Source: a virus
Taxonomy: Duplodnaviria; Heunggongvirae; Uroviricota; Caudoviricetes
Direction: 5' to 3' (one strand)
IMG/VR virus record: IMGVR_UViG_3300000059_000071
Location: 1-7,224 of that record
Length of the DNA: 7,224 bases
The notes under the pieces were generated by a model that saw nothing but the letters and a program-made list of their open reading frames with translations, searched no databases and was not told where the DNA came from. A program made the position numbers and the translations under genes. Shown in pieces: positions 1-7,224 of this stretch (positions within the stretch are counted from its first letter, which is position 1; each line of letters begins with the position of its first letter).

Positions 1-385
1 TCACGGGCGTTTAATTGCCCCGCCGAACAGCTCTTTTCCGCAATAGCTGCAATGTCTTTCGCGCATCAGCCTGCGCATTCACCACAACGCTGAGAGCACT
101 TAGCCAGTTACGGCACCACACTTTGTCGCGGTTCCATAAATGCCCTCATCGTTGCACCCTGGTCTCTTCCCAGGTGTCAAACCGAACCGCCACGCTGGTT
201 AGGCGTCTTATCAGCATCATCATTGACTTGCACATTCCGGCTACCTGGTTTGTTTGCCCGAGCAAGGAGTGGATTGTCCCCTTTAACGTCCCCAGACCGC
301 TAACGACGCATGTGCCATACACCGTGTTACAACCAAATTTTGTTAGTACCTTGTTTGTTGGTCTGGAAAGAAAGATAAAATGAAA

Positions 386-423
386 TTGCGCATTGTGCAA
401 GTGATTTGTTGTGATATATGCAA
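386..423. promoter_or_regulatory. Putative left operator pair (OL-like), probably overlapping a leftward early promoter
   Basis: Two 15-bp imperfect palindromes, TTGCGCATTGTGCAA (386-400) and TTGTGATATATGCAA (409-423), 23 bp apart start to start. Same pattern (TTGCGC-N3-NNGCAA) as the site at 1192-1206 next to the repressor gene. Position downstream of the repressor gene matches lambdoid OL/PL layout. No clean -35/-10 could be assigned. Confidence 0.4.
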
Positions 424-440
424 TTTAATGGGTAATGAAA

Positions 441-458
441 AGCCACCTTCGGGTGGCT
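441..458 (-). terminator. Rho-independent terminator candidate downstream of the repressor gene
   Basis: Perfect 7-bp GC-rich stem AGCCACC / GGTGGCT with a TTCG loop (plus strand). On the minus-strand RNA the hairpin is followed by UUUCAUU. Lies about 20 nt past the repressor stop at 479-481. Confidence 0.5.
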
Positions 459-478
459 AATTGATGAGGAGGTAAGGG

Positions 479-1171
479 TTAATTGTGTCGCTTAAGGGTT
501 TGTGACTGGCTGATTAAGACCTTTCCAAAGACCATAAACCGGTGTTCATTTTCGCTGGTAATTCCCCATTCACGGTAAATCTGGTTATCAGAAATCACCA
601 GTAGTTTGTCAGGTATCATTTGCAGTCGTTTGACATAAATTTTATCATCAAAACCAAATACATAGATACCATCTCCATCAAACTGATTGATACTGACATC
701 AACGAAGATGAGATCTCCTGGCTCAATGGTTGGACACATACTGTCCCCACGAACGTTGATAACTTTAATGTGATTGGCTGGTCGTCCGCCAAACATCGAT
801 ACAGCATTATCAGTTCTGTATTCAATGGCATGAATCACATCAATGACATCACCGCCCTGGATAAGGCCATTTCCCGCACTGGCACTGACATCCAGCATTT
901 CAATACGGAATACATCCTTCACCTGCGCAACATCCTCACTAATACTGTTTTTACATACAGTATTACTTTTGAAGTCTGAGGTAAAGAGATCAGCAATATC
1001 AACACCTAAGCTCCTGGCAATATTACTCAGGGCTTGTTCAGTGAATTGTTTCTGCTTACCTGTTTCCAGGCGTGAGATATTCGCCGCATCCACTCCTATT
1101 GCTTCAGCGAGATCGGCGATTTTCATGTTCTTCGCCTGGCGAAGTTGTCTGACTCGATTTCCTATGTTCAT
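479..1171 (-). CDS. CI-type prophage repressor (N-terminal XRE-family HTH, C-terminal LexA-like S24 peptidase domain); predicted RecA-stimulated autocleavage
   Basis: 230-aa ORF. N-terminal HTH (KIADLAEAIGVDAANISRLETG). Ala-Gly candidate cleavage site at residues 99-100 (SASAGNG). Ser in GDSM (res 144) and Lys in YVKRL (res 181), spaced 37 residues as in LexA Ser119/Lys156. Divergent from the cro-like gene. No SD upstream of the ATG, consistent with a leaderless transcript. Confidence 0.9.
   Translation of the reverse strand: MNIGNRVRQLRQAKNMKIADLAEAIGVDAANISRLETGKQKQFTEQALSNIARSLGVDIADLFTSDFKSNTVCKNSISEDVAQVKDVFRIEMLDVSASAGNGLIQGGDVIDVIHAIEYRTDNAVSMFGGRPANHIKVINVRGDSMCPTIEPGDLIFVDVSINQFDGDGIYVFGFDDKIYVKRLQMIPDKLLVISDNQIYREWGITSENEHRFMVFGKVLISQSQTLKRHN
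943..962. promoter_or_regulatory. LexA-box (SOS box)-like palindrome TACTGTTTTTACATACAGTA inside the repressor coding sequence
   Basis: Matches CTGT-N8-ACAG with both TACTGT/ACAGTA arms perfect; only the AT-rich centre differs from the consensus TACTGTATATATATACAGTA. A scan of the other CTGT occurrences found no second match in the window. Confidence 0.55.
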
Positions 1172-1268
1172 GCGTTTATTACATTTCTTTATTGCGCGTT
1201 AAGCAAATCAACTTGCGCAAAATATTTGCGTGAAATAATATGCTCATCACGCAATATGTGGAGGTTAT
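1172..1268. promoter_or_regulatory. Divergent immunity control region (OR-like operators with PRM-like leftward and PR-like rightward promoters)
   Basis: Operator-like site TTGCGCGTTAAGCAA (1192-1206) and a second TTGCGC-containing site, TTGCGCAAAATATTTGCG (1213-1230). Candidate PR: -35 TTGCGC (1213-1218), 17-bp spacer, -10 TAATAT (1236-1241), then SD GGAGG and cro ATG at 1269. Candidate PRM on minus strand: -35 TTGCTT (plus 1201-1206), 17-bp spacer, -10 TGTAAT (plus 1178-1183), putting the start at or near the repressor ATG. Confidence 0.6.
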
Positions 1269-1529
1269 ATGCAATCACCATTACGGAATGTGCGTAAAGC
1301 GCACGGATTTACTTTGCAGCATGTTGCTGCTGGCGTTCAGGTCAATCCAGCGACGCTGAGTCGTATTGAAAGACTGGAACAAATTCCATCTATCGATCTT
1401 GCAGAACGCCTGGCCAATTTTTTTAAGGGTGAAATCAGCGAAATGCAGATTCTTTATCCGGCACGTTTTCAATCTAGCCAAAACCAGAATGGGTTTAAAC
1501 CACAGGAACAGGAGGTAAGCCGTGGGTAA
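1269..1529 (+). CDS. Cro-like small HTH regulator (XRE family)
   Basis: 86-aa ORF divergent from the repressor. SD GGAGG 4 nt upstream of ATG. HTH segment FTLQHVAAGVQVNPATLSRIERLE. Position and size fit a Cro/YdaS-type protein. Confidence 0.8.
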   Translation: MQSPLRNVRKAHGFTLQHVAAGVQVNPATLSRIERLEQIPSIDLAERLANFFKGEISEMQILYPARFQSSQNQNGFKPQEQEVSRG

Positions 1530-1566
1530 GCATCACTGGAAAGTGGAAAAACAGCCTGAGTGGTAG

Positions 1567-2079
1567 GTGAAAGCTGTCAGAAAAACTATCGCGGCATTGC
1601 CTGGGGGTTACGCTGAAGCTGCTGACTGGCTGGATGTAACAGAGAACGCTTTATTCAACCGCCTTCGTGCAGATGGCGATCAGATTTTCCCGCTGGGATG
1701 GGCAATGATTTTACAACGTGCTGGTGGAACTCACTTCATTGCTGACGCTGTGGCGCAGTCTGCAAATGGCGTCTTTGTGTCTCTTCCTGACGTCGAGGAT
1801 GTGGACAACGCCGATATTAACCAGCGTCTGCTGGAAGTCATTGAACAGATCGGCAGTTATTCAAAACAGATTCGTTCAGCAATCGAAGACGGTGTAGTGG
1901 AACCGCATGAGAAGACAGCAATTAACGACGAGCTGTATCTCTCAATTTCGAAGCTGCAGGAGCATGCAGCACTTGTCTACAAAATTTTTTGCATTTCAGA
2001 AAGTAATGACGCCCGCGAGTGTGCAGCTCCGGGCGTCGTGGCGTCGATTGCTTCTGGTTGTGGAGAAACTAACGCATGA
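1567..2079 (+). CDS. CII-like / YdaT-like early regulator (functional CII analogue family); start codon uncertain
   Basis: 170-aa ORF immediately after the cro-like gene. Assignment is from position and recalled family resemblance, not a search. Annotated start is GTG 1567 with weak SD; a strong SD plus GTG lies in frame at 1511-1524 but is separated by TAG at 1564-1566. Stop overlaps the next ATG (ATGA at 2076-2079). Confidence 0.55.
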
Positions 2080-2414
2080 ACAGTTTAACAACACACTACC
2101 GTCGCTCGCAACTGATTGCGCTTCCTGTACCGGGTGGAAAAGCGAAGGTGGAGTATTGCTATGCAGTAAATGTACCAGGTGACAGGGAAATTGTAACCCA
2201 CAGCTTTGCAGAGTGGGCTGTGGGTGATTTCAACCGGCAGAAGGAGACAGTCCTTTGCGACAAGTTAACCGCTGGTTCAAAGATCACTACGGAGTGCCCG
2301 TCAGAGTCATTCGTTGGGAGCCGGAAACACAACGTGTTATCTACCTCCGCGAAGGCTATGAGCATGAGTGCTTCAGCCCGCTCGAACAGTTTCGTCGTAA
2401 ATTCAGGGAAATAG
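2076..2414 (+). CDS. Hypothetical early protein; likely carries a frameshift (sequence error or pseudogene) in its 3' half
   Basis: 112-aa ORF with SD GGAGAA 8 nt upstream, translationally coupled to the CII-like gene. The C-terminal ~50 residues in this frame are low-complexity ([16 protein letters not shown]), whereas the -1 frame from about 2228 to the TAA at 2432-2434 encodes a protein-like sequence ([55 protein letters not shown]). Confidence 0.4.
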
Positions 2415-2423
2415 AGGTCGGTC

Positions 2424-3365
2424 ATGAGCACTAAATTAACCGGCTATGTATGGGATGGTTGCGCTGCATCAGGCATGAAATTATCCAGCGTGGCAATTAT
2501 GGCCCGCCTGGCTGATTTCAGTAATGACGAAGGTGTGTGCTGGCCATCAATTGAAACCATTGCCCGCCAGATTGGCGCGGGAATGAGTACCGTCAGAACG
2601 GCTATCGCACGGCTGGAAGCAGAAGGCTGGTTAACGCGTAAGGCGCGTCGCCAGGGTAACCGCAATGCGTCGAATGTTTATCAGCTTAACGTTGCGAAGC
2701 TTCAGGCAGCGGCATTTTCTCAACTGTCAGATTCTGACCCGTCAAAATCTGACGCATCAAAATCTGACCCGTCAAAATTTGATGCGTCGAAATCTGGCAA
2801 AAAAGCGGGTTTTCACCCGTCAGAATCTGGCGGGGATCCGTCAGTAAAATCAAAACATGATCCGTCAGATAAAAAAACTTCTCGTCCGGACGCTTCGCAA
2901 CCGGACACGCAGACGGCTGAACAGGAGTTTTTAACTCGCCATCCTGATGCGGTTGTATTCAGCCCTAAAAAGCGCCAGTGGGGAACGCAGGATGATTTGA
3001 CCTGCGCACAGTGGCTCTGGAAAAAAATCATCGCCCTGTACGAGCAGGCCGCCGAATGTGACGGCGAGGTGGTTCGTCCCAAAGAACCGAACTGGACAGC
3101 CTGGGCAAACGAAATTCGCCTGATGTGTGTGCAGGATGGTCGTACTCANAAACAAATCTGCGAGATGTACAGCCGCGTCAGNCGCGATCCGTTCTGGTGC
3201 CGTAACGTGCTCAGCCCGTCGAAGCTGCGGGAAAAATGGGATGAGCTTTCCCTGCGCTTATCGCCGTCCGTAAGCACGTACACCGAAAAACGCGAAGACC
3301 CGTACTTCAAATCCAGTTACGACAACGTGGACTACAGCCAGATCCCGGCAGGATTCAGGGGGTGA
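2424..3365 (+). CDS. Lambda O-like replication initiator (N-terminal winged-helix DNA-binding domain, repeat linker encoded by the iterons, C-terminal domain)
   Basis: 313-aa ORF in the O position after the CII-like gene. N-terminal HTH/winged-helix-like segment (SIETIARQIGAGMSTVRTAIARLEAEGWL). Internal 5-aa repeats (DPSKS/DASKS) coincide with DNA iterons as in lambda O. SD AGAGGT upstream. Contains two N bases (3149, 3182). Confidence 0.8.
   Translation: MSTKLTGYVWDGCAASGMKLSSVAIMARLADFSNDEGVCWPSIETIARQIGAGMSTVRTAIARLEAEGWLTRKARRQGNRNASNVYQLNVAKLQAAAFSQLSDSDPSKSDASKSDPSKFDASKSGKKAGFHPSESGGDPSVKSKHDPSDKKTSRPDASQPDTQTAEQEFLTRHPDAVVFSPKKRQWGTQDDLTCAQWLWKKIIALYEQAAECDGEVVRPKEPNWTAWANEIRLMCVQDGRTXKQICEMYSRVXRDPFWCRNVLSPSKLREKWDELSLRLSPSVSTYTEKREDPYFKSSYDNVDYSQIPAGFRG
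2724..2877. repeat. Iteron array plus A-rich tract: candidate phage replication origin embedded in the initiator gene
   Basis: Five tandem 15-bp units each containing a GTCA-N5-TGAC-type palindrome (GTCAGATTCTGAC 2726-2738, GTCAAAATCTGAC 2741-2753, ATCAAAATCTGAC 2756-2768, GTCAAAATTTGAT 2771-2783, GTCGAAATCTGGC 2786-2798). A sixth copy at 2819-2831, two degenerate CCGTCAG copies (2838-2845, 2861-2868) each preceded by GATC, then an A-rich run (2868-2877). Confidence 0.65.
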
Positions 3366-3367
3366 TC

Positions 3368-3856
3368 ATGAGTCTGTTAAATGACGTTCAGAAATTCATT
3401 GAAGCCCATCCGGGGTGTACTTCCGGAGACATTGCGGATGCTTTTGCAGGTTACTCACGGCAGCGCGTTCTGCAGTCAGCAAGCAAGTTACGTCAGAGTG
3501 GGCGTGTGGCTCACCGTTGTGAAGGAGATACACGCAGACATTTCCCGCGCCTGACTGAGAGAGCGCAGGAACCGGAACCACAACCAGTTCGTGAAACCAG
3601 ACCTGTGCGCAATTTCTATGTCGGCACTAACGATCCCCGTGTGATTTTGTGCCTGACCCGCCAGGCGGAAGAACTGGAGTCCAGAGGCTTATACCGTCGT
3701 GCTGCAACCGTGTGGATGGCGGCATTCCGTGAAAGCCACTCCCAGCCAGAACGAAACAATTTTCTGGCGCGTCGTGAGCGGTGCTTACGGAAAAGCAGCA
3801 AGCGCGCTGCATCGGGTGAAGAGTGGTATCTGTCAGGGAATTACGTGGGGGCTTAA
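3368..3856 (+). CDS. PerC/Pch-family-like transcriptional regulator with an N-terminal extension
   Basis: ORF with SD GGGGG upstream of ATG 3368 (the GTG at 3362 overlaps the O-like stop and is less likely). C-terminal segment AEELESRGLYRRAATVWMAAF...ERNNFLARRERC resembles the conserved core of PerC-like regulators as recalled. Stop overlaps the next start (TAATG at 3854-3858). Confidence 0.55.
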   Translation: MSLLNDVQKFIEAHPGCTSGDIADAFAGYSRQRVLQSASKLRQSGRVAHRCEGDTRRHFPRLTERAQEPEPQPVRETRPVRNFYVGTNDPRVILCLTRQAEELESRGLYRRAATVWMAAFRESHSQPERNNFLARRERCLRKSSKRAASGEEWYLSGNYVGA

Positions 3857-4509
3857 TGAGTAATAAATATTGCCAGGCGCTGGTGGAACTGCGGAACAAA
3901 CCAGCCCATGAACTGAAGGAAGTGGGCGATCAGTGGCGCACGCCGGACAACATTTTCTGGGGAATTAACACCCTGTTTGGCCCGTTTGTTCTGGATCTGT
4001 TCACTGACGGTGATAACGCCAAATGTGCCGCGTATTACACGGCGGAAGACAACGCGCTGGCGCATGACTGGTCAGAACGCCTTGCGGAGCTTAAAGGTGC
4101 TGCCTTTGGTAATCCCCCATACAGCCGTGCCAGTCAGCATGAGGGGCAATACATCACCGGCATGCGTTACATCATGAAGCATGCCAGTGCCATGCGTGAT
4201 AAGGGCGGGCGCTATGTTTTCCTGATCAAAGCTGCCACCAGCGAAGTGTGGTGGCCGGAAGATGCAGATCATATTGCTTTTATTCGCGGGCGTATTGGTT
4301 TTGAACTGCCTGCCTGGTTTATCCCGAAGGATGAGAAGCAGGTGCCGACAGGCGCTTTCTTCGCTGGTGCTATTGCTGTTTTCGACAAGACCTGGAAGGG
4401 ACCGGCAATCAGCTACATCGGGCGCGATGAACTTGAGGCATGTGGTGAGGCGTTTCTGGCGCAGGTTCGCCAGCAGGCGGAAAAACTGGTCAGGGAGATG
4501 GCGGCATGA
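3856..4509 (+). CDS. Phage Dam-family N6-adenine DNA methyltransferase (orphan, no cognate restriction gene nearby)
   Basis: 217-aa ORF from ATG 3856 (SD GGGGG 4 nt upstream). Catalytic motif IV FGNPPYS. Size and context typical of lambdoid nin-region adenine methylases. Coupled to neighbours at both ends. Confidence 0.8.
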   Translation: MSNKYCQALVELRNKPAHELKEVGDQWRTPDNIFWGINTLFGPFVLDLFTDGDNAKCAAYYTAEDNALAHDWSERLAELKGAAFGNPPYSRASQHEGQYITGMRYIMKHASAMRDKGGRYVFLIKAATSEVWWPEDADHIAFIRGRIGFELPAWFIPKDEKQVPTGAFFAGAIAVFDKTWKGPAISYIGRDELEACGEAFLAQVRQQAEKLVREMAA

Positions 4510-4832
4510 CGACGTTAACTCAATGCCAGCAGCAGGTGCTGGATATGCTGATTTCTTATCAGAAAGAACGTGGCTTCCCGCCAACCAATCAGGAGGTGGC
4601 AACCATGCTGGGATACCGTTCAGTGAATGCAGCGGTGGAGCATCTTCGCGCACTGGAGAAAAAAGGCGTCATCACGATAAAGCGTGGCGTGGCCCGGGGG
4701 ATAACGCTTCATACCGCGGTGAAGGACGACGACAGCGAGGCGGTCGGGATTATCCGCGCACTGCTTACCGGTGAGGAAAACGCAAGGCTGCGTGCAACCC
4801 ACTGGTTACATGAGAGGGGCCTGAAAGTATGA
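4506..4832 (+). CDS. LexA N-terminal DNA-binding-domain homologue lacking the cleavage site and S24 peptidase domain
   Basis: 108-aa ORF. Residues 1-70 align with E. coli LexA residues 1-70 at roughly 50% identity as recalled (ours QQQVLDML...GFPPTNQEVATMLGYRSVNAAVEHLRALEKKGVITI vs LexA RQQEVFDLI...[36 protein letters not shown]). Recognition helix NAAxEHL conserved. No Ala-Gly site or Ser/Lys dyad; a ~35-aa unrelated tail follows. ATGA overlaps at both ends. Confidence 0.8.
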   Translation: MTTLTQCQQQVLDMLISYQKERGFPPTNQEVATMLGYRSVNAAVEHLRALEKKGVITIKRGVARGITLHTAVKDDDSEAVGIIRALLTGEENARLRATHWLHERGLKV

Positions 4833-5218
4833 AGCTGATCCTGCCTTTTCCGCCCAGCGTGAACACGTACTGGCGACACCCCAACAAAGGGGCGTTTGCT
4901 GGTAAGAGCCTGATAAGCGCGGCGGGGCGAAAATTCCAGAGCGCGGCGTGCGCAGCAATAGTTGAGCAGTTACGTCGTCTGCCGAAACCAACGTCGGCAC
5001 CTGCTTCAGTGGAGATCGTGTTGTTTCCTCCGGATAACCGGATCCGCGATCTGGACAACTATAACAAGGCGCTGTTTGACGCCCTGACCCACGCGGGTGT
5101 GTGGGAAGACGACAGCCAGGTGAAAAGAATGCTGGTGGAGTGGGGACCGGTTATCCCGGAAGGGAAGGTCGAGATCACTATCAGTAAGTACGAGAAAACG
5201 GCGGGTGCAGCCGCCTGA
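4829..5218 (+). CDS. rusA: RusA Holliday-junction resolvase
   Basis: 129-aa ORF. Motifs LPFPPSVNTYWRH and RDLDNYNKALFDALTHAGVWEDDSQV match E. coli RusA (LPWPPSNNRYYRH ... [26 protein letters not shown]), including the catalytic Asp cluster. SD GAGAGGGG upstream. Confidence 0.9.
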   Translation: MKLILPFPPSVNTYWRHPNKGAFAGKSLISAAGRKFQSAACAAIVEQLRRLPKPTSAPASVEIVLFPPDNRIRDLDNYNKALFDALTHAGVWEDDSQVKRMLVEWGPVIPEGKVEITISKYEKTAGAAA

Positions 5219-5237
5219 GCAAGAGGAGAAACGAAGT

Positions 5238-6035
5238 ATGAATAATCTGATGGTCATTGATGGTATTGAAGTTCGTCGTGATGCTTATGGGCGTTACAGC
5301 CTGAACGATCTGCACAGGGCTGCCGGTTCTCTGGATAAGCATAAGCCTGCATTCTGGCTCCGCAATGAGCAAACTGAACGTTTAATAAGCGAGTTGCAGA
5401 TTTGCAACTCGGTCAATATAGAGCCAGTTAACGTTATTCGTGGCGGAAATAACCAGGGGACGTATGTCTGCAAAGAACTGGTGTATGCCTATGCAATGTG
5501 GATCAGTCCGTCATTCCATCTGAAGGTGATCCGTACTTTCGATATGGTAACCAGCGCACCGGAAAAATTATCCGGGCAGGCTGCTGACAAGATGCAGGCT
5601 GGAGTGATTCTGCTGGACTTTATGCGCCGGGAGTTAAACCTGTCTAACTCTTCAGTGCTTGGTGCCTGTCAGAAACTCCAGGAGGCTGTTGGCTTACCGA
5701 ATCTGGCACCGCGCTATGCCATTGATGCTCCTGCTGACGCGCCTGATGGCTCAAGCCGCCCCACGCTGTCACTGAGTGCACTGCTGAAGCAGTATGGTAT
5801 CCGCCTGACAGCTAATCAGGCATATCACCAGATGGTGAAGCTGGGGATCGTCGAGCAGCGCGAACGATACAGCCGTACCGCGATTAACAACATCAAAAAA
5901 TTCTGGTCGCTGACAGCGAAAGGCTGCATGTTCGGCAAGAACATCACCAGTCCCGCAAATCCGCGCGAGACGCAGCCGCATTTCTTCGAATCCCGATTCC
6001 CTGAGCTGTTAAAGCTGCTCGATACCGTTCATTGA
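5238..6035 (+). CDS. KilA-N domain protein (Roi/antirepressor-like) with an uncharacterised C-terminal domain
   Basis: 265-aa ORF from ATG 5238 with SD GAGGAG 8 nt upstream. N-terminal ~100 aa (MVIDGIEVRRDAYGRYSLNDLHRAAG...KPAFWLRNEQTERLISEL) has the character of KilA-N/Roi DNA-binding domains. The C-terminal ~160 aa was not recognised. Confidence 0.75.
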   Translation: MNNLMVIDGIEVRRDAYGRYSLNDLHRAAGSLDKHKPAFWLRNEQTERLISELQICNSVNIEPVNVIRGGNNQGTYVCKELVYAYAMWISPSFHLKVIRTFDMVTSAPEKLSGQAADKMQAGVILLDFMRRELNLSNSSVLGACQKLQEAVGLPNLAPRYAIDAPADAPDGSSRPTLSLSALLKQYGIRLTANQAYHQMVKLGIVEQRERYSRTAINNIKKFWSLTAKGCMFGKNITSPANPRETQPHFFESRFPELLKLLDTVH

Positions 6036-6036
6036 G

Positions 6037-7032
6037 GTGACCGTGAGAGCACTACTGACCCCTGAAATTGCCCCGCGTATGGGGATCGTATTGTTCAGAC
6101 CAGGTTCAGAGCTGATGCCCCTGTTTATGCAGGGGCGTGTCCTGCTGGAGCCTGAGCCGGAACGTTATTCATCTTTCGCCAGCGGTGCCGTTCCGGCGGC
6201 ATCACAACCGCTGGCGGATGATCCTGCCGTTCGGGCCGTGTTCCGCAATGAGGCAGTGATCCGTCGTGCTGGTGGCGTGGAATGTCTTGAAAGCTGGTTA
6301 CTTCGTGAAAAAGGCTGCCAGTGGCCTCATTCCGACTGGCACAGCGAGAACATGACCACAATGCGACACGCTCCGGGCGCAATCCGTCTGTGCTGGCACT
6401 GCGATAACCAGCTGCGCGATCAGTTCACGGAACGGCTGGAATCAATGGCAACGGATAACTGTGCCCGCTGGGTGTTGTCTGTTGTGCGTCGGGATCTCGG
6501 TTTTGATGACAGTCACGTTGTGACAATGCCGGAACTGTGCTGGTGGCTGGTTCGTAATGACCTGGCGGATGCCTTACCGGAAAGTGCAGCCCGTAAGGCA
6601 CTGAGATTACCGAAGCCTGTTGTGCCGTCTGTCACCCGGGAAAGTGACCTTGTGCCTTCGGTTCCTGCCACCAGCATCATCCAGGATAAAGCGAAAAAGG
6701 TGCTGGCGCTGAAAGTGGATCCGGAGTCGCCGGAGTCTTTTATGTTACGCCCAAAACGTCGCCGCTGGGTTAATGAAAAGTACACGCGCTGGGTTAAGAC
6801 GCAGCCGTGTGCATGTTGTGGAAAGCCTGCTGATGATCCCCACCANCTGATAGGCCACGGTCAGGGNGGAATGGGTACAAAAGCGCATGANCTCTTTGTG
6901 TTGCCTTTGTGCAGAAAGCATCACGACGAGCTGCATGCGGATACCNTGGCATTTGAAGAGAAGTATGGCTCCCAGCTGGAGNTGATATTTCGTTTTATCG
7001 ATCGTGCGCTGGCAATNGGCGTGCTGGCCTGA
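6037..7032 (+). CDS. DUF968-like prophage protein with C-terminal Cys/His (HNH-like) motif; start codon uncertain (GTG 6037, GTG 6043 or ATG 6079)
   Basis: 331-aa ORF directly upstream of Q, the position of DUF968 proteins in lambdoid prophages as recalled. Cys/His motifs CWHCDNQ and CACCGKP...CRKHHDELH. Six N bases inside the ORF (6846, 6868, 6891, 6946, 6972, 7018). Confidence 0.65.
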
Positions 7033-7048
7033 TTTTGTGGAGAAAGTT

Positions 7049-7224
7049 GATGCGTGATATTCAAATGGTTCTTGAACGTTGGGGGGCATGGGTGGCAAAT
7101 AATCACGAGGATGTGGAATGGTCATCTGTTGCTGCAGGTTTTAAGGGATTAATTCCTTCGAAAGTAAAATCCCGCCCGCAATGTAGCGATGACGATGGCC
7201 TGATCATTAGCTCTGCGATGACAG
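7049..7224 (+). CDS. Late antiterminator Q, N-terminal fragment (gene runs off the window end)
   Basis: ATG 7049 with SD GGAG 6 nt upstream. Translation [53 protein letters not shown] matches the recalled N-terminus of Q-family antiterminators. Follows the nin-like genes as expected. Confidence 0.75.

Follow-up and report, generated by a model that had tools for sequence, protein, structure and literature searches.

The DNA analyzed here, referred to as the window, is a stretch of 7,224 nt (positions 1 to 7,224 of the IMG/VR virus record IMGVR_UViG_3300000059_000071, Caudoviricetes), and its gene content is that of the immunity and early-right region of a lambdoid prophage. The minus strand carries a gene for a CI-type repressor, and inside its coding sequence lies a LexA operator (SOS box), followed in frame by a Shine-Dalgarno (SD) sequence and a GTG codon (Table 1). 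The repressor shows the organization of self-cleaving repressors of the CI/LexA type, i.e., an N-terminal helix-turn-helix (HTH) domain, a C-terminal S24 domain, an Ala-Gly pair and a Ser/Lys dyad; Ala99-Gly100, Ser144 and Lys181 of the full-length protein are all invariant in the family alignment. By analogy to LexA and lambda CI, Ala99-Gly100 is presumed to be the site of self-cleavage. The gene is found at at least 90% nucleotide identity in 1040 of 5426 complete Escherichia coli genomes (~19%). It is the same gene as the cI of SfII, mEp460, PhiR63_1, Stx2a_1447/WGPS2 and 1720a-02, and it is annotated as cI in SfII, mEp460 and the Stx2a phages. Relatives with 70-76% nucleotide identity are present in Salmonella ST64B and in Klebsiella phages, and the family further takes in Cronobacter ENT47670.

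Table 1. Coordinates of the features discussed in the text (numbering of the window; predicted and putative elements are named as such).
Feature	Position	Strand	Remarks
LexA operator (SOS box)	943..962		TACTGTTTTTACATACAGTA; cI sense (minus) strand reads TACTGTATGTAAAAACAGTA
CI-type repressor	479..1171	minus	230 amino acids (aa); HTH 7-64 (Pfam HTH_3/HTH_26), linker, Peptidase_S24 104-218
Ala99-Gly100 codons (SASA/G)	872..877	minus	presumed RecA-stimulated self-cleavage site
Shine-Dalgarno GAGGA (in TGAGGAT)	933..937	minus	10 nt 5' of the internal GTG; duplex with the 16S 3' end -6.8 kcal/mol
Internal in-frame start GTG (Val84)	920..922	minus
Predicted nested open reading frame (ORF)	479..922	minus	147-aa CI isoform: S24 domain plus 16-residue arm with Ala99-Gly100, no HTH
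Putative -10 TACTGT (left half of box)	957..962	minus	arranged as in native umuD
Putative -35 TTTACC (codons F63-T64)	980..985	minus	17 nt 5' of TACTGT; weak
Predicted transcription start region of internal transcript	948..951	minus	inferred from the position of the -10
Intrinsic terminator	441..458	minus	ends the cI transcription unit; annotated as terminator in SfII
OL-type operator ATTGCGCATTGTGCAA	385..400		3' of the cI terminator; basis: repeat D2
OR region, CI/Cro operator palindromes (ATTGCGC...GCAA type)	1190..1256		basis: repeats D2, D3, I1
PRM-like promoter	1262..1235		promoter scan
cro-like gene	1269..1529
Protein with LexA DNA-binding domain only, 108 aa	4506..4832	plus	PF01726, E = 3e-19; no cleavage/dimerisation (S24) domain
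Remaining genes			CII/YmfL-like; O-like replication with iterons; PerC-like; Dam-like methylase; RusA; KilA-N; DUF968; start of Q

A preliminary description of this DNA had reported a LexA box with two perfect 6-bp arms within the repressor gene, and the exact position was confirmed. The arms form the CTGT-N8-ACAG inverted repeat that, with an AT-rich spacer, is the pattern of SOS boxes. The term "perfect palindrome" used at that time holds for the two arms and not for the 8-bp spacer between them. About 4e-4 exact matches were said to be expected by chance, which is arithmetically correct (7224 x 4^-12), and TACTGT-N8-ACAGTA has no other match in the window even when two mismatches are allowed (0.11 expected from shuffles). 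To score the box, a position weight matrix (PWM) was made from 14 LexA sites of E. coli that are UV-induced (PMC3009722, Table 4). The score of the box, 26.6 bits, is above 9 of the 14 sites (range 20.1-28.7) and 2 bits below umuD and sbmC; the second-best site in the window reaches 9.2 bits. The boxes of SfII, C. braakii and K. spallanzanii are identical to the umuD/sbmC operator TACTGTATATAAAAACAGTA. The PWM score, together with the conservation presented below, argues for a genuine and strong operator of the LexA type. The box codons are translated as N70-T-V-C-K-N-S-I77, which is, as previously noted, the linker between the two domains of the repressor.

The conservation of the box was investigated in a homologue set that included metagenomic and viral loci and comprised 270 genes, 183 unique sequences and 68 clusters (93% nucleotide identity). 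The box (CTG-N10-CAG) was present at the homologous position in 65 of the 68 clusters and in 64 of the 66 unique genes of an additional set, the two exceptions being of the Phaseolibacter type and a truncated gene. Box-bearing repressors span ~15 enterobacterial genera, down to ~54% protein identity. The box occupies the same place in SfII, ST64B, Klebsiella phages and phage Eeyore, as well as in prophages of Citrobacter, Kluyvera, Pseudescherichia, Klebsiella, Buttiauxella, Trabulsiella, Pantoea, Mixta, Rosenbergiella, Proteus and Serratia. The surrounding linker is hypervariable and contains indels, and the residues encoded by the box vary as well, i.e., (T/A) V (C/Y/H/F/N/D/E/P/G/L) (K/I/N/T/S/A) (N/H/Y/D/S/T/P) S. 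Despite these changes of residue, the codons remain constant as xxT ACT GTA nnn nnn NAC AGT. No other 6-codon stretch of the gene has a third-position entropy as low as that of the six box codons (0.68 bits, mean 1.38; rank 1 of 220). When 67 clusters were considered, the only third positions below 0.5 bits were those of Met1, Met145, Trp202, His229 and five of the box codons (0.11-0.49 bits, against a gene median of 1.68). The search of Rfam matched no family at the box site.

It could be argued that the linker peptide T-V-x-x-x-S merely happens to spell a LexA box, by chance or due to constraint on the protein, as T71, V72 and S76 are nearly invariant residues. However, Thr71 is ACT (17/17), Val72 GTA (15/19) and Ser76 AGT (17/18), whereas codon choice is mixed in other columns of conserved Thr, Val or Ser. 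At the level of clusters, ACT is used in 64 of the 65 with Thr, and AGT in 64 against two with AGC. Furthermore, position 75 is limited to NAC codons (N, H, Y, D), and codon 70, which encodes six different amino acids, ends in T in 60 of 65 clusters. At the homologous position of HK022 CI, T-V-N-H-L-S is spelled ACG GTA AAT CAT CTA TCA and no box is formed; since a similar peptide occurs there without a box, the peptide does not dictate the box. The codon data and HK022 effectively refute this explanation, to which we assign a negligible probability. The preliminary description had asked whether the palindrome is conserved at synonymous positions among homologous repressors, and the answer is decisively affirmative: the codon entropies argue that the box is under selection at the DNA level, far beyond chance.

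Two homologues with unusual annotation were encountered in the same set. In Salmonella phage 118970_sal3 (L006), cI is annotated only as a short C-terminal or internal fragment, the reading frame is broken and the box is intact; this copy is probably defective. In Klebsiella phage 1 LV-2017 (L004), cI is likewise annotated as such a fragment, yet translation of the sequence gives an intact ORF of 231 aa, so that the annotation looks like a miscall.

Downstream of the box, a second conserved element was found. In the window's clade (Escherichia/Shigella/Citrobacter/Salmonella), all 122 loci carry TGAGGAT or a near variant and all 122 carry the GTG at codon 84. In the family as a whole, the codon preceding (Y/F)R(V/I)(E/D)xLDVSASAG is GTG, ATG or TTG in 87% of the clusters. 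This usual start column has GTG in 52 of its 58 Val codons, compared with ~18% at 11 other conserved Val columns. It also shows the strongest upstream complementarity to the anti-SD sequence, with a mean of -7.9 kcal/mol against -1.66 (sd 1.6) for the gene (rank 1-2 of 222), and the internal SD is stronger than that of the annotated cI start (-8.9 vs -3.2 kcal/mol). The SD runs themselves vary (GGAGG, GGGAG, AGGAG, GGGGGGG) and are encoded by different amino acids. Clades without the usual start codon have their own SD and start at alignment column 86, 92 or 97; in the window's clade the start lies three codons 5' of the usual column, in Proteus at column 92 and in four Klebsiella-type clusters at column 97. 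Each of the 65 box-bearing clusters thus has an in-frame SD and start within 23 codons past the box, as do 64 of 64 additional box-bearing unique genes; of stretches of the same size in other parts of the gene, 22% do. The start sits just before the S24 domain, 20-45 nt 3' of the box.

Other signals around the start were considered and set aside. The +1-frame ATG within GATGTG is preceded by an SD in 60 of 67 clusters. However, GAT is not enriched at that column (91% vs 82-86% at other Asp columns), whereas the third base of GTG is strongly constrained, and this ATG is hence regarded as a by-product. The SD was more accessible in a short transcript than in a long one (0.44 vs 0.34 unpaired), which is a generic effect of added sequence and hence uninformative. 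The heptamer TTGCGCA, identical to a half-site of the CI operator, lies exactly between the SD and GTG84 (923-933, minus strand) in the window's clade only; it matches only half an operator and its presence is probably due to chance.

The box and the internal start are also absent together. In two Dryocola genes (L101, L104) the box is lost or GC-degenerated, the start column reads GGT or GGA and there is no alternative start, and the cI of Yersinia phage 30.14 (L357), which belongs to the same family with 48% identity over its full length, has neither element. Both are also missing from the repressors of HK022, P22-like SE1 (C2), PhiR34_1, HK639, a Mannheimia phage and Stx2_EH2246. These related genes are of the self-cleaving type, with homologous C-terminal domains (43-53% identity) and different N-terminal domains. 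The Dryocola and Yersinia genes offer natural box-less comparators.

On the cI sense strand, the box is embedded in an arrangement that resembles a known SOS promoter. In the window this strand reads TTTACC-17 nt-TACTGTATGTAAAAACAGTA-20 nt-GTG, and the native umuD region of E. coli reads TTGATC-17 nt-TACTGTATATAAAAACAGTA-19 nt-ATG. A 47-bp fragment derived from umuDC functions as an SOS promoter, and we infer that TACTGT is the only possible -10 element at a workable distance from a -35 element within it. The preliminary description had found no convincing promoter around the box on either strand, which appears too pessimistic in view of the umuD-like TTTACC-17-TACTGT order on the sense strand. 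Measured to the TT of the invariant Phe63 codon, the spacing is 17 nt in all clusters except Proteus. Since the distance between the putative -35 and -10 is fixed while that between box and start codon varies from 20 to 45 nt, the arrangement fits a promoter followed by a 5' untranslated region (UTR). The box is in addition asymmetric: 60 of 65 clusters have T at position 0, which would be the -12 T, and only 37 of 65 have A at the mirror position 19.

An internal or antisense transcript had been suggested earlier, and the two parts of this suggestion fare differently. An antisense promoter would drive a plus-strand transcript complementary to the 5' half of cI, toward OR and cro, by which CI would be lowered or repression bypassed during SOS. 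LexA-repressed antisense RNAs do occur in lambdoid immunity regions, as exemplified by lambda OOP, and due to the symmetric arms TACTGT is also found on the plus strand (943-948). On that strand, however, the -35 would fall in the hypervariable, indel-rich linker; -35 candidates score on average -0.29 in the antisense and 3.2 in the sense direction (null -0.84), with 56 of 65 clusters scoring higher in the sense direction. Nothing conserved was found for the antisense strand, including in Rfam, and the SD and start on the sense strand would be left unexplained. An antisense promoter is in our opinion improbable, and the SD, the start and the umuD-like geometry favor the internal transcript.

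Bound LexA could also act without any promoter, as a roadblock or attenuator. According to this explanation, LexA within cI would impede RNA polymerase coming from PRM and lower the amount of full-length CI in undamaged lysogens, so that loss of LexA would transiently raise CI synthesis and buffer weak SOS signals. A very strong site lies ~270 nt into the PRM transcription unit, PRM-driven polymerases must meet any LexA bound there, and the proposed internal -35 is weak and without detectable selection. A roadblock could nevertheless sit anywhere in the gene, and it leaves unexplained the SD and in-frame start that are conserved with the box and absent where the box is absent, the constant spacing of 17 nt from the TT in the Phe codon and the asymmetry of the box. 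We consider it unlikely as the principal explanation, even though some hindrance of PRM transcription probably accompanies whatever else the box does.

For ST64B, published transcriptomic data were considered. The noncoding RNA STnc1310 of ST64B in S. [quoted passage not shown] STnc1310 looks like a PL leader. Bulk RNA-seq of ST64B gave 394 whole-gene cI reads under peroxide and 251 under InSPI2, if the assumed order of the condition columns is correct.

In light of the above, we find it fairly probable that the repressor gene harbors, nested in frame, a small SOS gene of which the box is the operator. In a lysogen, host LexA would occupy the box. The half-site TACTGT would double as the -10 of a weak-to-moderate sigma-70 promoter oriented in the same direction as cI, with TTTACC as its -35 at 17 bp, and this promoter would fire when DNA damage depletes LexA. 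Since umuD-type boxes are among the tightest known, firing would be expected late, in severe SOS. The resulting short transcript would start inside the box, bear a good SD, be translated from the GTG at Val84 and stop, like the cI transcript, at the terminator downstream of cI. Its predicted product is an isoform of CI of 147 aa that would retain the S24 dimerisation/cleavage domain and lack the HTH. Compared with UmuD, this isoform shows 36% identity over 83 aa, and UmuD' is the best sequence match with a solved structure for the corresponding part of CI.

CI-type repressors, such as lambda CI, and LexA dimerise and cooperate via the S24 domain. Given this property of the C-terminal domain, the most likely role of the predicted isoform would be that of a built-in dominant-negative antirepressor, forming with intact CI mixed dimers or oligomers that bind operators poorly. 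Induction would thereby be reinforced or made irreversible, beside the RecA-stimulated self-cleavage of CI. It is also possible that the isoform serves as a decoy substrate that buffers RecA-stimulated cleavage, or as a partner for cleavage in trans. That a self-encoded, LexA-gated and HTH-less isoform, made only in deep SOS, poisons or redirects intact CI is a proposal we make tentatively, with less confidence than that of the nested gene itself.

A number of observations weigh against this interpretation. The putative -35 is weak, with 4 of 6 matches in the window and TTCTCT in one large clade. Synonymous constraint on it was looked for at Phe63 and none was found (TTT 36, TTC 31), and the -35 is thus deduced from its position alone. 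A consensus promoter scan of the window did not call the internal promoter, which it misses because 9 of 12 matches are demanded. The clusters are phylogenetically related, hence the counts given above overstate the number of independent events, and the joint absence of box and start rests on ~2-3 lineages. Ribosomes could use the internal start on the full-length mRNA from PRM, in which case the box would have another function, and impeding PRM transcription could be the main role of the box after all. As CI keeps its cleavage site and its catalytic Ser and Lys, an antirepressor is not strictly needed, and the isoform may either promote or buffer induction.

Another candidate ligand of the box is encoded by the phage itself, and the preliminary description had named it beside host LexA. 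The 108-aa protein encoded in the early-right region aligns without gaps to residues 2-70 of LexA, followed by a tail of 40 aa, and has a clear LexA N-terminal domain. Its recognition helix reads SVNAAVEHL (SPNAAEEHL in LexA), with S39, N41, A42 and E45 kept. Produced from the early-right operon and not cleaved in SOS, it would be an uncleavable LexA mimic that might act on cI in lytic growth. However, it has no LexA dimerisation domain. Loci with its gene at a distance of 8 kb or less from cI are confined to Escherichia, Shigella, one Citrobacter and Kluyvera, apart from a weak partial match in one Pantoea locus, on the opposite side of cI. Among viral loci, 57 of the 80 near-identical ones encode the protein, as do only a few of the more distant ones. 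On the cI flanks (8 kb) of other Pantoea, Serratia, Proteus, Klebsiella, Mixta and Rosenbergiella prophages the gene was not detected, and a near-consensus box is kept there. Because the box persists where this gene is absent from the flanks, host LexA emerges as the conserved ligand. As the main partner of the box the phage protein is very improbable, its conservation not following that of the box. It may be an accessory factor that re-represses SOS boxes in lytic growth and a secondary ligand of this one.

With respect to the rest of the window, the OL and OR operators (ATTGCGC-N-GCAA palindromes) are ~800 bp apart on either side of cI, which places the LexA box inside any OL-OR loop; the CI/Cro operator palindromes are unrelated to the box. 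In the stretch 1522-1566 (plus strand), the CII/YmfL-like gene contains an in-frame amber TAG at 1564-1566 where the near-identical prophage L001 has TAC (Tyr15), and restart is possible only at the GTG at 1567. The amber is either a real nonsense mutation of a lysogeny-establishment gene or a sequencing error. At 2733-2796 (plus strand), the O-like replication gene contains four 15-bp iteron-like repeats TCTGACCCGTCAAAA; they are presumably the origin, and they also give a spurious sub-threshold match to Rfam (mir-5880). Eight N bases (3149, 3182, 6846, 6867, 6891, 6946, 6982 and 7017) in the O-like and DUF968 genes suggest a draft-quality or consensus assembly.

Viral contigs were further scanned for TACTGTATATAANNACAGT and the matches were classified by position. 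Strong boxes were intergenic in 87 cases, 17 were located in the 5' UTR of phage umuD-like genes, 11 in this cI family and 6 in other long ORFs, of which those inspected look spurious. The cI family is thus the only recurrent intragenic class among the strong viral boxes. In the phage umuD-like genes (L372, L392, L402, L449, L451, L461 and others) the box lies 5-6 codons 5' of the ATG and in frame, and it would be translated as TTVYKNS, the same peptide as the cI linker. The linker could have arisen by exonisation or fusion of a umuD-type 5' region, although the C-terminal domain is nearer to the HK022-type CI than to UmuD.

LexA operators, self-cleaving CI repressors, LexA-controlled antirepressors and in-frame truncated inhibitors are already known singly. 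No description seems to exist of a LexA operator that lies within, and co-evolves with, the coding sequence of a repressor and is paired with an internal start: the literature searched contained no intragenic LexA operator in cI and no SOS-induced or truncated CI isoform, and only tables of umuD/sbmC and a synthetic promoter were retrieved. If the proposed model is true, a second, LexA-timed layer would be added to the lambda-type induction switch, and a single gene would hold two damage sensors, i.e., RecA-stimulated self-cleavage and LexA-gated synthesis of an isoform. Such prophages might then respond to the depth of SOS and not only to RecA activity, and a regulatory DNA element with its promoter would be hidden in coding sequence, invisible to standard annotation. 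The phages concerned include medically relevant ones, namely Stx2a converters, the Shigella serotype converter SfII and Salmonella ST64B.

Among known systems, the closest resemblance is to umuDC. The SfII-type homologues carry the identical operator and the window one that is 1 nt different, the half-site TACTGT would likewise act as a -10 at 17 bp from the -35, and the start codon follows 19-20 nt past the box. The predicted product, of ~140 aa and S24 fold, would resemble UmuD (139 aa) in having no DNA-binding domain and an N-terminal arm with a cleavage site. In contrast to umuDC, the unit is nested in frame in a repressor gene, where the operator is also translated as a linker, and there is no adjacent gene for an umuC-type polymerase. 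Such a gene (umuC, Y-family polymerase) was found neither in the window nor in the 17-kb annotated locus of L001, whose sequence departs from that of the window between ymfL and the PerC-like gene. The S24 domain is nearer to the C-terminal domains of the HK022-type CI (43-53% identity), and the function is presumably regulatory, unlike the translesion synthesis of UmuD.

In the Gifsy prophages (GfoA, GfhA, GftA) and coliphage 186 (Tum), cleavage of LexA switches on a phage protein that inactivates the lysogenic repressor (PMC3121763). Those antirepressors come from small genes of their own, located away from the immunity region, have no sequence relationship to the repressor, and act on repressors that are non-cleavable. 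Here, in contrast, cI itself encodes the candidate antirepressor in frame (922..479), as a repressor without its N-terminal part, and the repressor keeps the Ala-Gly pair, the Ser and the Lys. With regard to such a module, the box, SD and start are seen in the window, while control by LexA and inactivation of the repressor are predicted, the latter from the shared dimerisation domain.

A LexA site is also part of the phage switch at lambda pO/OOP. In CTXphi (PrstA/rstR), host LexA acts directly at the promoters of the phage switch, and in phage GIL01 of Bacillus thuringiensis host LexA, with gp7, is likewise a component of the switch. The operators of CTXphi, GIL01 and lambda pO/OOP lie between genes, where they overlap with the principal lytic or repressor promoters; none is known to be in repressor coding sequence or to control an isoform. 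As for truncated isoforms, Inh of Tn5 is a form made from an internal start that lacks DNA binding and poisons the full-length protein through mixed oligomers. The Tn5 short form is constitutive and restrains activity, whereas the short form proposed here would be inducible by damage through LexA and would relieve repression.

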